Assembly (NCBI GenBank): GCA_964016885.1
Contig: CAXHJY010000416.1
Coordinates: 1 to 64,000, forward strand
DNA length: 64,000 nucleotides
Source: Eledone cirrhosa
Lineage: Eukaryota
Direction of reading: 5' to 3'
Shown here one piece after another: positions 701 through 41,213 of this stretch. Both the position numbers and the translations under genes were made by a program. Within the stretch, counting starts at the first letter, position 1; every line of letters starts with the position of its first letter. A model generated the notes under the pieces. That model saw only the letters and a list, made by a program, of their open reading frames with translations. It made no database searches and had not been told where the DNA came from.

Positions 701-1538
701 TTTATATATATATATATATATATATATATATTTACATATACATATATATATATACATATACATACATATACATATATATATATACATATACATACATATA
801 CATATATATATATACATATATATACATATATATATATATATATACATATATATACATATATATATATATATACATATATATATATACATATATATACATA
901 TATATACATATATACATATATATACATATATATACATATATACATATATATACATATATATACATATATATATATATATACATATATATACATATATACA
1001 TATATATACATATATACATATATATACATATATATATATACATATATATACATATATACATATATATATATATATACATATATATACATATATACATATA
1101 TATACATATATATATATACATATATATACATATATATATATATATACATATATATATATACATATACATATATACATATATATACATATATATATACAAA
1201 TACATATATATATATACATATATATACATATATATATACATATATATATATACATATATATATATATATACATATATATATATACATATATATACATATA
1301 TATACATATATACATATACATATATATACATATATATATATATACATATATATATACATATACATATATATATACATATACATATATATATACATATATA
1401 TATACATATACATATATATATACATATATATATACATATATATACATATACATATATATACATATATACATATATATATACATATATATACATATATATA
1501 CATATATACATATATATATACATATATACATATATACA
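701..1538. repeat. (TA)n microsatellite array with CA interruptions
   Basis: Direct reading; followed by a T-run at 1539-1557. Confidence 0.97.
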
Positions 1539-1557
1539 TTTTTTTTTTTTTTTTTTT

Positions 1558-4500
1558 AATGACCATGCTGTAAAATGGAGGGGTAGAGAGGGCCCTTGAG
1601 TCTAGTAAGACATCCTCTCTAGTGCTGGTGGCACAAATAAAAGCACCCAGTCCATGCTGTAAAGTGGCGCTGGTGTTAGGAAGGGCATCCAACCAGTGTA
1701 TCAATGCCAAAAAGCTTATCAGCACAGCAACAAAACAGCATAGAAAAATATGAAGACGTCGCATCTCAGAGTTGCAACACTTAATGTTGGCACTCTCAGA
1801 GGTAGGTCTGCTGAAATAGCGGAGATGCTGGAGAGAAGGCAGGTGGATGTGTGCTGCGTGCAAGAGGTGAGATGGAGGGGTGCCTCTGCGAGACTAGTCG
1901 TAGGCAAGCGTCTTAGCTATAAGCTATTCTGGGTAGGTAAGGATGATGGGTTAGGGGGAGTAGGCATTTTCCTGGCTGAGAAATGGATCAATAAGACAAT
2001 AGAGGTAGTTCGAGTTAGTAATCGAATAATTAAGCTTAGATTAGTTGTAGGTAGGAGACTACTGACAATCATCTCGGTCTATGCTCCCCAAGCAGGCCTA
2101 GGCAAAGATGAGAAAGACTGCTTTTATGAGCAACTTTTGCAAACAACCACAATGACAGAGGACACCACAATGACAGAGGACGGAGACATCGTTATGCTAG
2201 CAGGAGACTTCAATGGTCATGTTGGACAGCTCCAGGATGGTTACACTGGGGTACATGGTGGGCACGGTTACGGTTCAAGAAATGAAGAAGGAGTGAGACT
2301 TCTTGAATTTTGTGATGCAAGTACATTGACTATTTGCAACACAAACTTCCAGAAACCTGCCAATCACCTAATAACCTACAAATCTGGTGAGCACATAAGC
2401 CAGATTGACTTCCTGCTAGTTAGGCAGCGGGACAGGCAGATAGTGTCTAATACCAAGGCATACCCTGGGGAAGAATGTACCCCACAGCATAAGTTAGTTG
2501 TTAGTGATATCTCAGTAAGCAAGAGATGGAATGAGACATATAGGAAGGTGTGGAGAAGAAAGGTCTGGAAGCTAAAAGACCTTTCACTAAAATTCAAATT
2601 TAGGAAAGCCCTTCAAGATGTATATGACGAAAAAGAAGACGATTTAGAGACGTATGACATAGATAATAACTGGAAGTTCTTACGTGACAACTTGCTGAAG
2701 GCTACTGATGAAACCTGTGGCTGGAGCAGAGCTCCAACCAGACAGAGAGTGACCTGGTGGTGGAACAGCAGTGTAGATAAGGCTATTAGAGACAAAAGAC
2801 TAGCATGGAAGGCTTGGAATAAGGGTGGGAGTAGGGAAGAATATACAGCCACTAAGAGAGAAGCTAGACGTCAGGTGTACTTAGCACGCAGGGAGGCAGA
2901 GAGTAGGAGGTTTGCCAATGTTCTGCGACGGGAAGATCAGAGGCGTGCGGTGTTCCACATTGCAAGGCAGTGTGTCAATGCAAATCAGGATGTTGTTGGT
3001 GATAAATGTGTCCGGGATGATGCCGGTGTACTTAGTGTCACGAATGACCAGAAAAAGGAGGCCTGGAAATGTCATTATGAGAGACTGATGAATGTGGAGA
3101 ACGAATGGGAGAGAGAGAAATTACCCTTGGTAGATCCGACAGAGGGACCAGCTATTGAGATTGACGAATATAGGGTCCAAGAGGCGATTAGGGAAATGAA
3201 AAATGGTAAGGCGGCCGGACCATCGGGAATAGTTGCTGAGATGCTGAAGGCATCAGGGGACGTAGGCACTAAACTGGTTGCACGCATAATCAATCAGGCT
3301 ATATATGGTGGTGTCATACCCAAAGACTGGTGCAGCAGTATTCTCATAAATTGCTACAAAGGTAAAGGGGATGCTTTGGAGAGGAGCAATTATAGGGGTA
3401 TAAAACTGATAGATCAGGTTATGAAAGTGGCAGAAAGGATTCTAGCACAACTAATTAGAGAAAGGGTCAAACTAGATGAGATGCAGTTTGGTTTTGTGCC
3501 TGGGAAGAGTACAACAGATGCCCTCTTCTTGGTGAGACAAATGCAAGAGAGGTTCTTAGAGAAGAATAAGCCACTATACTTAGCCTTTGTTGACCTAGAG
3601 AAGGCCTTTGATAGGGTACCCCGATCTGTCATCTGGTGGTCCCTAAGGAAGCTGGGTGTTGAGGAATGGCTTGTAAGGACAGTGCAAACTTTGTACAGAG
3701 GTACTCTCAGTAAAGTCAGGGTAGGAATGGAGTTTAGTGAGGAATTCCAGATACAAGTAGGAGTACATCAGGGTTCGGTCCTCAGCCCGCTCTTGTTCAT
3801 TATAGTCCTCCAAGCCATAACAGAGGAGTTTAAGACTGGCTGTCCATGGGAACTTCTCTATGCTGACGATCTGGCTCTTATGGCAGAATCAGTAGAGGAG
3901 CTAGAGAATAAATTCCGGCTATGGAAACAGCAGTTGGAAGCAAGAGGACTGAGAGTAAATCTAGCTAAGACAAAAGTGTTGATGAGTAGAAAAGAGGACA
4001 AAACCCTGATTCCGTCAGGGAAATGGCCATGTTCGATATGCAGAAAAGGAACTGGCATAAATTCTATAAAATGCACACAATGTAGGTCCTGGGTACACAA
4101 GAGATGTAGCGGGATAGCAGGCAAACTAACAGGTAGGGAGAAATATGTATGCAGTAGATGTACAGGGAAATTAGACAGTAGAAGTCGCACTGATAGACAC
4201 ATTTTTCAAATGCGAGAGGGCGCTATAGAAGTGGTGGATAGCTTCCGGTACCTAGGAGATCAGATTAGCATGGGAGGAGGGTGTTCCGAGGCCATAGTAT
4301 CTAGAATAAGGACGGGTTGGAAGAAGTTTAGGGAGCTGCTTCCTCTGTTGACGAAGAAGGGTTTCTCCCTGCGTACGAAAGGCCGGTTGTATGATGCCTG
4401 TGTGAGGAGCGCGATGCTGCATGGTAGTGAGACATGGGCAGCTACCGCAGAAGATATGCGACGGCTGGAGAGAAATGAGGCAAGCATGCTCCGTTGGATG

Positions 4501-4857
4501 TGCAGTGTAAATGTGCGTGAACGACCCAGCATAAATGTGTTGAGAGAGAAACTGTGTCTGAGAGGGATAGAATGTAGTGTACGGGAGAGGAGACTGAGGT
4601 GGTATGGACATGTGATGCGCATGGAGGATGACCGATGGGTGAAGAAGTGCCAGGAAATGCCAGTTGAAGGAAGACGTGGTAGAGGTAGACCACGAAAAAC
4701 ATGGGCGGAGGTGGTGAGAACAGAGCTCAGATCATTGAAGCTCACGGTGGAGATGACGAGGGACCGTGACGAGTGGAGAGATGCTGTGCTGAATAAGACC
4801 CGTCCCACCCTTGCAAGCAGGGAAAAGCGGACGTAAAATGATGATGATGATGATGAT
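1558..4857 (+). mobile_element. RTE-clade non-LTR retrotransposon (RTE-A), near full length
   Basis: Single EN-RT ORF, short 5' UTR, (TGA)n tail at 4839-4857 directly after the stop codon, microsatellite on both sides. Confidence 0.93.
1750..4836 (+). CDS. APE endonuclease + reverse transcriptase, 1028 aa, with a Cys-rich PHD-like insert
   Basis: [27 protein letters not shown] (APE); [32 protein letters not shown] (RT); RRLRWYGHV and RGRPRKTW (RTE C-terminus); no internal stops. Confidence 0.95.
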
Positions 4858-39955: not shown

Positions 39956-40330
39956 TGGTGGCTGCCAACTCGTTTTCGAGTACGGCCACTACTTTATATC
40001 CATGTAGGAGAACCCCTACCGGTGCGCTGAACGAGTGTGACTTTTTAGTCCAGCCAGCGTATTGAAAACTCTGGTACAAACACTACACCTGTGACAATTA
40101 TTGACACATAGTGCTGGGCCCATGGTACCATGTGACGACAAGTGTAGAGAGATCTCCAGATATAAAGCAATGCCTGTGCCGTGAAGCTTTTATAGTGAGC
40201 AAAGGCACTGCACAAAGCCAGTCCCACTCTCTTAACCAAGATGATATTTACCAAAAAGAACAAGTCAACATCATTGGATACCACCAGGGTTGCAGGTGTT
40301 ATATCAAGAGTTTTCCTTCTCCTAGAATTC
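39956..40330 (-). mobile_element. Bipartite non-autonomous RTE derivative, copy 3 (5'-truncated)
   Basis: Near-identical to copies 1 and 2. Confidence 0.85.
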
Positions 40331-40331
40331 C

Positions 40332-40883
40332 GTACATACATACATACATACATATATACATACATATACATACATACATACATACACATACATATACATA
40401 CATACATATATATATTACATACATACATATATATATTACATACATACATACATATATATACATACATACATACATATACATACATACATACATATATATA
40501 CATACATACATATATATACATACATACATACATATACATACATACATATATATACATACATACATATATATACATACATACATATATATACATACATACA
40601 TATATATACATACATACATATATATACATACATACATATATATACATACATACATATATATACATACATACATATATATACATACATACATATATATACA
40701 TACATACATATATATACATACATACATACATATACATACATACATACATATACATACATACATACATACATATACATACATACATATATATACATACATA
40801 TATATATATACATACATATATATACATACATATATATATACATACATACATATATATACATACATACATACATATACATACAT
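40332..40883. repeat. (TACA)n/(TA)n array
   Basis: Direct reading. Confidence 0.95.
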
Positions 40884-41213
40884 AGATTCACCGAACATTT
40901 ATTATAATGCTCGGTGTGTTTGTGTTTGTAAACAAACATCCCGTATTAAGCTGTAGTGTCTAGCAACCATCGTTGCTCGTTTCTTCAATACTGACAAAGG
41001 AACGCTGTACTAGTTTCAAGCTTATTAGCTATCGTCAGCAACGTATACCTTCCTGCCATATTGTTGAACGTATATACTTACCTTATGCATATTAATGGCT
41101 GAGTAGCCTAATTTGCATATCGAGTGGGTTAATCGACTGGGTTCACCGAAAACGATAAACGGAATGTTTGTTTACAAACACACCGAGCATTATAATAAAT
41201 GTTCGGTGAATCC
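40884..41213. mobile_element. MITE-like element with about 55-bp terminal inverted repeats
   Basis: gattcaccgaacatttattataatgctcggtgtg..tttgtaaacaaacat versus atgtttgtttacaaacacaccgagcattataataaatgttcggtgaatc. Confidence 0.75.

Follow-up and report, generated by a model that had tools for sequence, protein, structure and literature searches.

An oriented (T/C)A microsatellite of Eledone cirrhosa, probably split in turn by about ten retroelement families

The window analysed is a stretch of 64,000 nucleotides of Eledone cirrhosa DNA (contig CAXHJY010000416.1). Its block at 701–41213 is probably one polar (T/C)A microsatellite, itself probably intronic in a coiled-coil gene, that was split in turn by about ten young families preferring TA/TACA DNA. 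The anatomy of the block, the common polarity of its arrays and the continuity of the flanks at single-element insertions were observed directly, as were same-polarity (ACAT)n flanks of a non-autonomous RTE in other samples. A preference of the ~10 families for alternating TA/TACA targets likely explains the repeated splitting, and since one of them adjoins a same-direction repeat in other individuals, the repeat is likely a shared landing site, which insertions may help to regrow.

Architecture of the block

The 40,513 bp of the block were tiled completely by 11 element blocks (29,101 bp) and 11 arrays (11,412 bp) that consisted of 92–99.8% (T/C)A dinucleotides (Table 1). The block therefore contains no single-copy host DNA, as a sequence-only reading of the window had stated. 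The element blocks (29.1 kb) hold 13 retroelement pieces from ~10 unrelated families, in agreement with the earlier count of about 13 insertions, and include two intact RTE-type LINEs, three non-autonomous bipartite RTE copies, one CR1-like fragment, one R4-like fragment and four Penelope-like (PLE) pieces. Alternating repeat made up 38% of 701–41213 compared to 1.9% of 41214–64000.

The claim that the elements are separated by microsatellite held for the 11 arrays but not throughout: the RTE-3, hammerhead and R4 pieces of the compound block are joined without intervening repeat, and ~5 kb of repeat (2 × ~2.5 kb of degenerate TA/CA, 20946–23257 and 30087–32416) is internal to PLE1, whose interior also has two 150-bp repeat runs. 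A further array with the same polarity at 73–195 suggests that the pile extends to the left of 701. Of the three endonuclease types named in the earlier reading, APE was identified by Pfam in both RTE LINEs (RTE-1 and RTE-2) as well as the CR1-like piece, and GIY-YIG by motif in PLE1 and PLE2 (Pfam gave 0 families for both); the third, RLE, is putative, from a PD-(D/E)xK motif in the R4-like fragment (Pfam 0 families). Near-identical copies had also been described, which is correct for the three non-autonomous RTE copies (mutually 96.5–98.5% identical), while the repeats at 20–33 kb and 36–38 kb (99.6–100%) arise within individual PLE insertions, from their inverted and tandem portions, and are not separate events.

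Table 1. Coordinates of arrays, retroelements and predicted exons in the window
Feature	Position	Strand	Description
Array a1	701–1538		99% YA; C 78 / G 0
RTE-1, full-length RTE-type LINE	1539–4857	+	ORF 1753–4836; 5′ oligo(T) run; 3′ (ATG)n tail
Array a2	4858–8326		C 252 / G 2
Putative PLE-type remnant 1	8327–8755		Inverted arms of 128 bp, identical to each other; core resembling a degenerate hammerhead; direct repeat of 37 bp at the flanks
Array a3	8756–10186		First 520 bp contain 21 copies of a CAA-variant unit, also closing the left flank of the insertion
RTE-2, full-length RTE-type LINE	10187–14384	-	ORF 13969–10421; 5′ T32 run
Array a4	14385–15457		C 122 / G 1; top k-mer match is the end of a3, across RTE-2
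Non-autonomous bipartite RTE, copy A	15458–15867	-	Start is the 5′-end hotspot of reads
Array a5	15868–17604		C 155 / G 2
CR1-like internal fragment	17605–20011	-	APE and part of RT; cut by repeat at both ends
Array a6 (short)	20012–20100		C 4 / G 2; no clear polarity
PLE1, Hydra-type Penelope-like element	20101–33425	+	7,199-bp unit; RT and GIY-YIG
Array a7	33426–35211		14-bp variant block at 34073–34490, adjoining no insertion; 32-bp variant ×4 adjoining copy B
Non-autonomous bipartite RTE, copy B (longest)	35212–35753	-	Identical 60-bp direct repeat at both flanks
Array a8	35754–35901		C 15 / G 1
PLE2, 5′-truncated canonical PLE	35902–38533	+	RT thumb and GIY-YIG; 1-kb inverted arm
Array a9	38534–38770		C 25 / G 1
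Compound block	38771–39900	+	RTE-3 3′ fragment (to ~39200); minimal hammerhead (39260–39330); presumed R4/Dong-like RLE 3′ fragment (ORF to 39818)
Array a10	39901–39952		C 7 / G 1
Non-autonomous bipartite RTE, copy C	39953–40333	-	5′-truncated
Array a11	40334–40885		C 100 / G 1
PLE/retrozyme-type remnant 2	40886–41213	-	~60-bp terminal inverted repeat; minimal hammerhead core at 41038
Predicted host exon, last of seven	42212–42352	-	Phase-0 coiled-coil; GT donor toward the pile
Other predicted host exons	51483–51563, 52808–52930, 54734–54832, 58947–59069, 60845–60973, 63551–63685		Phase-0 coiled-coil

Polarity, continuity and growth of the arrays

Ten of the 11 arrays had far more C than G (1111 C against 49 G in total, with 38 of the G from one array), and this polarity was identical beside plus-strand and minus-strand elements. 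A transcription-driven strand bias was rejected as its source because the ten tracts in the host region of the same gene were mixed, with C in excess in 4, G in 4 and neither in 2. The longest common string across the eight true gaps was 40.25 bp compared to 28.1 bp in non-adjacent array pairs; 32 of 16,687 pairings were as high as 40.25 bp (permutation p = 0.002), and k-mer similarity of the flanks across insertions gave p values of 0.009–0.04. Direct repeats of at least 20 bp abutted the junctions of 7/11 blocks compared to 20/100 non-cognate pairs (p = 0.018), where block boundaries were placed by eye and the null leaves out the three top non-cognate values, in which an array was compared with itself. 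The 60-bp direct repeat of copy B, which carries a rare variant, is longer than the null maximum of 41 bp. On the polarity and the flank continuity, the proposal that a single array was split again and again is likely to be correct.

The arrays contain three amplified blocks of rare variants, of which two adjoin insertions; in the 37-bp repeat around remnant 1 the CAA variant has a single copy in the left flank and 21 copies in the right one. The third block, at 34073–34490, expanded with no insertion adjoining it, and slippage alone is therefore able to lengthen an array. The arms of PLE1 differ by 3 clear substitutions and 12 indels, and since every indel lies in a simple run slippage appears to be fast, although these differences could alternatively be sequencing errors. 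We infer from these observations that the array may be reinforced by its insertions.

RTE-type elements and their flanks in other samples

RTE-1 and RTE-2 each have a single ORF with APE and RT and a 3′ short tandem repeat, features by which they probably belong to the RTE clade. Both ORFs are intact, as previously claimed, with 0 stops in the 1027 residues of RTE-1 (APE, and RT with a PHD-like finger; Pfam PF03372, PF00078, PF00628) and in the 1182 residues of RTE-2 (APE and RT by Pfam, with C-terminal C2H2 fingers). The UTRs of RTE-2 are rich in (TG)n and (TTA)n microsatellites. RTE-2 had 930 relatives at E ≤ 1e-50, almost all of them unnamed and the best at 64% identity, and a metagenome scan with it gave seven distant loci at 22–36%. 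With regard to the 5′ HDV-like ribozyme of some RTE families, 35400–35752 and 14060–14347 were searched at E ≤ 5 and no ribozyme family matched. Runs of T18–T32 separate the flank from the element close to or exactly at full-length 5′ ends, in RTEs whose 3′ ends lack poly(A).

The non-autonomous RTE is ORF-less and multicopy and combines 5′ and 3′ RTE parts, as bipartite non-autonomous RTEs do. Its 5′ UTR, 69% identical to that of RTE-2 over 229 bp, is fused to the C-terminal finger and RTE 3′ end; judged by this divergence, RTE-2 is too distant to be the direct parent. RTE-2 and all three non-autonomous relatives lie on the minus strand, as a fixed-orientation rule predicts.

Copy B was matched by 104,419 of 12.47M, 108,206 of 12.79M and 99,314 of 12.65M RAD reads from three other samples, so that this family makes up ~0.8% of the reads. 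The matching skipped terminal repeats, and full-length ends lay outside the scoring. Of the 1,242 loose-end rows 24 were listed (18 from raw reads and 6 from contigs), and one row may represent one locus sequenced many times. AATT cut sites were at or adjoining 9 of the 18 listed raw-read rows, and the other nine comprised seven (ACAT)n-type ends with the polarity of this block, one poly(A) and one non-repeat end. Opposite-polarity (ACAT)n was found in 0 of these nine informative rows listed, and (ACAT)n in 0/6 of the listed contig rows. A TA-flank bias elsewhere, on which the sequence-only reading had staked its proposal beforehand, is therefore present in 7/9 informative rows listed for the one family covered, the non-autonomous RTE. 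The 5′-end hotspot of this family in the reads is often headed by oligo(T). For RTE-1-type elements the bias was partial: at least 10 nt of alternating repeat followed 4/9 old (GAT)n-tailed ends in the host region (background 3.3%, p = 1.3e-4), and the remaining 5/9 were outside repeats.

It is very unlikely that the repeat was instead made by the elements, with the tails of adjacent insertions and the microsatellites in their UTRs growing independently, although the UTRs of RTE-2 and the 2.5 kb of degenerate repeat in PLE1 would provide material and RTEs seed repeats in Lepidoptera (PMC2887409). Such growth does not fit a polarity that is independent of element strand, or identical variants flanking insertions on both sides, and in the RAD reads the repeat adjoins 5′ truncation points (35520, 35544 and 35711), where a 3′ tail is impossible.

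Penelope-like elements

PLE1 consists of an inverted 5.6-kb arm (20104–25708), a pLTR (25708–26231), an ORF (26384–28827) and a second, identical pLTR (32907–33430), giving a tandem unit of 7,199 bp. The ORF encodes RT (YRDD) followed by GIY-YIG (IVY..YIG) at the C terminus; an A-run near 28181 differs between the two copies, and the frame of the forward copy is shifted. Among the motifs of Hydra PLEs it has RWR instead of RWK (aa 37), DKT in place of DKG (aa 115), the CxCX5C linker (CNCRNKANC), and CxxC (CRLC) and CxH (CNH) around the conserved E and N, and GxKF is absent. The 4.1-kb 3′ extension contains degenerate TG/TA and diverged ORF-end modules. A candidate hammerhead with a long stem II was folded by eye from core letters in the pLTR; a descriptor scan and Rfam missed it. 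Rfam miRNA matches were sub-threshold and were discarded as repeat artefacts.

PLE2 has a CX4CxxC linker (CIDKKCITC), a GIY-YIG with two internal cysteines (VVY..C..C..YIG) and hammerhead cores at 38270 and 36104 with a 6-bp stem II. These features are those of Neptune and Nematis, and its motifs would place it in either of the two clades. The ORF-less remnant 1 is probably a PLE by its layout, and remnant 2 was at one stage considered a MITE, an assignment dropped once its hammerhead core was found.

The CR1-like and compound blocks

The APE and RT domains of the CR1-like fragment are consistent with the CR1 group, the candidate clades being CR1, L2, Crack and Daphne. The fragment has one in-frame stop near 19536, 36 relatives at 30–51% identity (one of them named), and a cut where relatives have the I/L-rich YIND codons, a motif present in 31/36 of them. 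Its 3′ third (~340 aa) gave 0 matches with 31 C-terminal queries in the masked window, and the piece is therefore not a CR1 element merely split in place. The R4/Dong-like label of the fragment in the compound block is presumptive, from motifs; RT is absent, and its atlas matches were eukaryote clusters that are uninformative for RLE. A description of this fragment as decayed was dropped because its 177 aa have 0 stops.

No flank match was found across CR1+PLE1 (k-mer rank 6–7 of 8) or across RTE-3+R4+copy C (rank 6–8 of 8), and it is at these two compound blocks that a partly chimeric assembly, in which separate element-plus-repeat loci were joined via TA arrays, would be most plausible. Arrays of up to 3.5 kb, a CR1-like piece bounded by repeat with its 3′ third absent from the window, and a locus without a spanning read or contig record all fit such joins. 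They are nevertheless quite unlikely, since rare variants are common to both sides of single insertions, the PLE layouts are canonical with identical pLTRs, and random joins would yield uniform polarity only if the assembler preserved the strand sense of the repeat.

Host gene and the region from 42 to 64 kb

The seven coiled-coil exons predicted at 42–64 kb are directed into the pile, which makes the intronic position proposed earlier likely. No homologue was found at E ≤ 0.01 among 24 candidates. No further exon was recognised to the left of 42212, where frames derived from repeats overwhelmed the exon scan of the sequence before 43 kb, and the 'intron' therefore depends on one donor site. 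Decay beyond 42 kb was confirmed, as the RTE relatives at 47–59 kb have 0–8 stops per aligned segment and frameshifts.

A real locus that accumulated elements with no intrinsic targeting is unlikely, whether as a tolerated intronic safe haven or as a fragile, cruciform-prone repair site capturing cDNA. Long (TA)n is fragile, the cut of the CR1-like piece at its YIND codons could offer AT-rich microhomology, the compound block has three pieces, and passive build-up near CA repeats was proposed for Waldo-A/B (PMC3812793). Against this, the RTE family has oriented (ACAT)n flanks in other samples, most insertions have normal 3′ tails and direct repeats, and the adjoining 22 kb of the same gene contain old copies only.

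Proposed mechanism and significance

In the preferred reading, serial splitting of one array, the array would be nicked by target-primed insertion. RTE-2-type RNA, with a 3′ end ...CCAU that would run on into AU/AUGU repeats, may base-pair with (ACAT)n on the nicked strand, and this pairing would fix the orientation of insertion. The PLEs probably recognise (TA)n through a linker rich in Cys, a role already suggested for Hydra and Naiad. Every insertion would likely duplicate 20–60 bp of target, and slippage would expand the duplicated halves, so that the target is enlarged rather than consumed.

A more far-reaching version, possible but rather unlikely, is a landing pad built by the community, in which an oriented (ACAT)n-targeting RTE lineage, insertion-seeded array growth and capture and export of repeat by PLEs let three endonuclease classes co-amplify their niche. 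The RTE lineage would find its target by pairing of its read-through tail with the array, and array growth would be seeded from the insertions' own target duplications. Two PLE landings in one array could trap the intervening repeat in a hammerhead-to-hammerhead unit, such as the 4-kb extension of PLE1, and PLEs could then carry captured target DNA to new sites. If true, such feedback would be one way in which the very large, repeat-rich introns found in genomes of this kind arise.

Catalogues of microsatellite targeting usually proceed family by family; here ~10 families, three endonuclease types and a record of array growth occur in one locus, which allows feedback between repeat and retroelement to be tested directly. 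The locus would bear on the origin of transposable element hotspots and giant introns in repeat-rich invertebrate genomes, and would account for unreliable microsatellite markers and assembly breaks in them.

Comparison with known systems

The ingredients of the block are already known. The literature covered gave no prior account of an RTE that targets (ACAT)n, whether oriented or not, of a single array common to three endonuclease types, or of a microsatellite pile made up of many families, although Repbase/Dfam family notes, supplements and subscription journals may hold one. Known microsatellite-targeting LINEs are Waldo (ACAY), Mino (AC), Kibi, Koshi and Dong (TAA) (PMC3812793). Insertion into an existing simple repeat is common to these and the present elements, and ACAY adjoins the non-autonomous RTE here, but each target there has one family while here several endonuclease types share an array. 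Dong, offered earlier as a parallel, is reported to target TAA and not TA/TACA. RTE elements are not mentioned in PMC3812793 (0 occurrences of the term), and an RTE family with an oriented (ACAT)n target would add a clade to those on its list.

The non-autonomous RTE resembles RTESINE, WALLSI3 and Bov-A in joining an RTE 5′ UTR to an RTE 3′ end, and differs from them in its oriented repeat target and in a 5′ hotspot that is often headed by oligo(T) (PMC5786205). RTE-2 shares its domain set, including the C2H2 finger, with the RTE LINE of octopus brain, and its microsatellite likewise begins at the ORF end, a likeness by description only; the main text of that paper has 0 instances of 'target site' (PMC9115989). 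TA at the cut and a target-matching 3′ repeat are as in the RTE Tn-TA signature (PMC6007223; PMC13295347). The T-runs near 5′ ends recall L1 5′ poly(T) heads (PMC2837659), but here T18–T32 lies between flank and element in RTEs that have no invertible 3′ poly(A).

With Naiad, to which they had been likened, the PLEs have in common a preference for (TA)n, a pLTR and an inverted arrangement. A Naiad identity was rejected because GIY-YIG is N-terminal in Naiad and terminates both ORFs here; hammerhead cores, canonical ones being absent from Naiad, are also present in PLE2 and as a candidate in PLE1. PLE1 instead matches the Hydra clade, which is reported to choose (TA)n for nearly all of its insertions (Craig et al. 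2021, PMC8557442), in its RWR, DKT, CxCX5C linker, CxxC, CxH and C-terminal GIY-YIG, in its tandem and inverted layout and in its (TA)n flanks. Hydra units are generally <3 kb, whereas that of PLE1 is 7.2 kb with a 4.1-kb extension and 2.5 kb of degenerate TG/TA, a size that is descriptive rather than diagnostic of the clade (PMC8557442).

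Anatomy of the pile

The analysis drew on the window, public reads and protein searches. Masking, self-BLAST, translation and inspection of the junctions divide the retroelement pile at 701–41213 into 11 insertion blocks totalling 29,101 bp and 11 repeat arrays totalling 11,412 bp, the latter being 92–99.8% (T/C)A. The blocks contain 13 element pieces, three of them within a single block, matching the approximately 13 insertions of the sequence-only reading. Its statement that nearly all junctions are TA repeat holds where arrays part the blocks but not at 38771–39900, where a minimal hammerhead lies between an RTE 3' fragment and an RLE fragment with no repeat separating the three. 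The labels RTE, CR1 and R4 are based on domains and on motifs characteristic of these groups, not on trees.

Features of the pile and its surroundings
Feature	Position	Strand	Remarks
Additional array	73–195		Polarity as pile arrays
496-bp segment	204–699		Single copy in window; possibly a twelfth insertion block
RTE-1	1539–4857	+	1027-aa APE-RT ORF, 0 stops
Oligo(T) heads of RTE-1, RTE-2	1539–1557; 14348–14379	+; −	18–32 nt
18-bp tandem duplication	2146–2181		In frame, RTE-1 endonuclease domain
RTE-2	10187–14384	−	1182-aa APE-RT ORF with C2H2 fingers, 0 stops
Copies A, B, C	15458–15867; 35212–35753; 39953–40333	−	Bipartite RTE derivatives, 380–540 bp each
CR1-like piece	17605–20011	−	Internal fragment, 1 stop
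PLE1	20101–33425	+	Single 13.3-kb insertion
PLE1 3' extension	28828–32906		4.1 kb; at least 4 diverged ORF-end module copies, 2.5 kb degenerate TG/TA
(ACAT)n-type loose ends on copy B	35520, 35544, 35620 (twice), 35622 (twice), 35711		Raw reads
PLE2	35902–38533	+	Neptune/Nematis-type linker
Minimal type I hammerhead and adjoining R4-like fragment	39200–39900	+	Hammerhead directly upstream of R4-like fragment, downstream of doubly truncated RTE piece; one strand
Seven predicted exons	63685 to 42212	−	Phase-0, AG/GT-bounded, E/K/Q/L-rich; predicted long coiled-coil protein
48-bp tandem repeat	52383–52588		4.3 copies; resembles RTE-1 5' UTR motif by eye
Inverted ends	56595–57000		56810–56851 vs 56960–57001, with a further motif like these near 56600; visually MITE-like
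RTE-1 relative	57458–58563	+	85% identical; internal deletion (5' piece and 3' third), then (AC)n
tRNA-like match	61926–61983	−	Rfam, 34.9 bits; probably a SINE head
Minisatellite	62810–63465		31-bp unit, 21 copies, 96% matches

Elements of the pile

The two intact ORFs claimed previously were recovered, those of RTE-1 and RTE-2. RTE relatives at 47–59 kb contain stops and frameshifts, so the proposed contrast between a young pile and decayed elements beyond it is real. The 5' part of the bipartite element matches the 5' UTR of RTE-2 at 69% across 229 bp, and its 3' part corresponds to the terminal finger and 3' end of RTE-2. Despite their oligo(T) heads, RTE-1 and RTE-2 lack 3' poly(A), and some other copies in reads (35622) are likewise headed; the heads are possibly untemplated A added to the cDNA end.

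Beyond the end of the CR1-like piece, 31 of 36 relatives run on for another 111–350 aa, a downstream part not found in the window. Only one of the 36 relatives is named; it comes from Argonauta hians and aligns at 51% identity across 78% of the query. Together with the make-up of the pile compared below, this match makes an octopod the probable host. PLE1, a Penelope-like element, comprises a 7.2-kb unit between terminal repeats (pLTRs) and a 5.6-kb inverted arm. The two pLTRs agree at every position (524/524), and the PLE1 arms differ by three clear substitutions, 12 indels, all within simple runs, and six further substitutions confined to one ambiguous repeat alignment. PLE1 fits the Hydra motif list in section 11 of PMC8557442, although its 3' extension more than doubles the usual Hydra length. 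The ORF-end modules there are 68–76% alike, so repeat capture by PLE1 is old. PLE1 brings approximately 5 kb of degenerate TA/CA into the pile inside its two arms, and this contains no insertions. The PLE2 arms differ by 4 substitutions in 1007 bp. Hammerhead-type cores occur in two ORF-less pieces with inverted ends; the minimal hammerhead of block 38771–39900 scored 33.6 bits against Rfam HH9 (E 1.7e-5), short of the 52 bits set as cut-off. The arrangement at 39200–39900 suggests either a chimera formed by template jumping or a non-autonomous family of composite make-up.

Continuity and growth of the array

In 10 of 11 arrays C lies almost solely on the plus strand (totals 1111 C, 49 G), independent of neighbouring element orientation, whereas of the host-region tracts (~42–64 kb) four are C-biased, four G-biased and two even. 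The longest strings shared by array ends facing across an insertion were 40.25 bp, against 28.1 bp for mismatched ends (permutation, 32/16,687 pairings; k-mer p 0.009–0.04). With block boundaries placed by eye, direct repeats of at least 20 bp abut the junctions of 7 of 11 blocks (p = 0.018; for non-cognate pairs the figure is 20 of 100). The direct repeat of copy B is 60 bp, and its G-variant occurs in arrays solely on the two sides of copy B. These observations support the suggestion that one array was split repeatedly, except at the two compound blocks (CR1-like piece with PLE1; RTE-3 with R4 fragment and copy C), where flank continuity is absent and deletion or mis-joining is therefore possible. 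That absence favours partial mis-assembly, which we consider distinctly unlikely as the explanation of the pile.

Two of three variant blocks agree with the idea that each insertion also regrows the array. The CAA variant of a 37-bp repeat at 8327–8755 occurs once to the left and 21 times to the right, and a 32-bp variant at copy B four times to the left and once to the right; both variant blocks start at an insertion, in agreement with expansion from target duplication. A third, at 34073–34490, expanded without an adjoining insertion, so slippage alone can have this effect, and insertion is a candidate cause of the growth. We infer feedback between insertion and repeat. The pile was probably produced by several families with independent alternating TA/TACA preferences inserting into one long intronic array, where target duplication and slippage would stop the target being exhausted. 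Passive or break-driven capture of the elements is an unlikely origin.

The pile is likely intronic, as the GT donor of the final predicted exon faces it and no later exon was recognised past this donor (42212). No homologue of the coiled-coil gene was found in a search from one exon.

Probable repeat targets outside the pile

The host flank is present in three runs from one sample, and other samples under the same species label supplied three RAD runs; copy B, terminal repeats left out, was mapped in four of these six. Approximately 0.8% of RAD reads match copy B, indicating a very abundant family, although RAD depth gives no copy number. Of 1,242 rows of loose ends 24 were examined, 6 contig and 18 raw-read. 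Among the six contig ends listed none was (ACAT)n, one was an A-run and one a TATC-type repeat. Nine of the 18 raw-read ends listed lie at or beside AATT sites where molecules end, which we infer to be enzyme cuts. The other nine comprised seven of (ACAT)n type with the polarity of the pile, one poly(A) and one non-repeat, so the predicted TA-flank bias outside the pile was seen in reads for this one family. No 3' tail can account for repeat that abuts internal 5' truncation points, which makes an origin of the repeats from element tails very unlikely; this family likely inserts into (ACAT)n with a set orientation. Fixed direction agrees with the minus-strand position of RTE-2 and all three copies. 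Positions 35620–35622 form a 5'-end hotspot with which the start of copy A coincides; some hotspot reads carry an A-run, equivalent to the oligo(T) head of RTE-1 and RTE-2, and no ribozyme family matched at E ≤ 5 in 35400–35752, which includes the hotspot, or in 14060–14347.

From 20 pattern matches in the host region, nine ends of old RTE-1-type elements with (GAT)n tails were chosen by eye. At least 10 nt of alternating repeat follow four of the nine, where the background rate is 3.3%, a bias rather than strict specificity.

Comparison with known systems

The pile is a real feature of known parts whose combination was not found described: the literature searched, Repbase/Dfam notes and supplements being outside its scope, gave neither a multi-family pile within one array nor an (ACAT)n-targeting RTE. 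An RTE family with oriented (ACAT)n targeting would be new and is testable. A (TA)n bias is known for Hydra and Naiad PLEs (PMC8557442), and microsatellite targets for Waldo (ACAY), Mino (AC), Kibi (TC), Koshi (TTC) and Dong (TAA) (PMC3812793). Bipartite RTEs (PMC5786205), repeats seeded by RTE tails (PMC2887409), the Tn-TA insertion signature of RTE (PMC6007223, PMC13295347), 5' poly(T) on L1 (PMC2837659), an octopus RTE with a C2H2 finger (PMC9115989) and hammerheads in PLEs (PMC6765202; bioRxiv 10.64898/2026.07.22.740005) are likewise described. The element mix of the pile resembles the recently active set reported for Octopus vulgaris, namely RTE, Dong-R4, CR1 and Penelope (PMC13282606).
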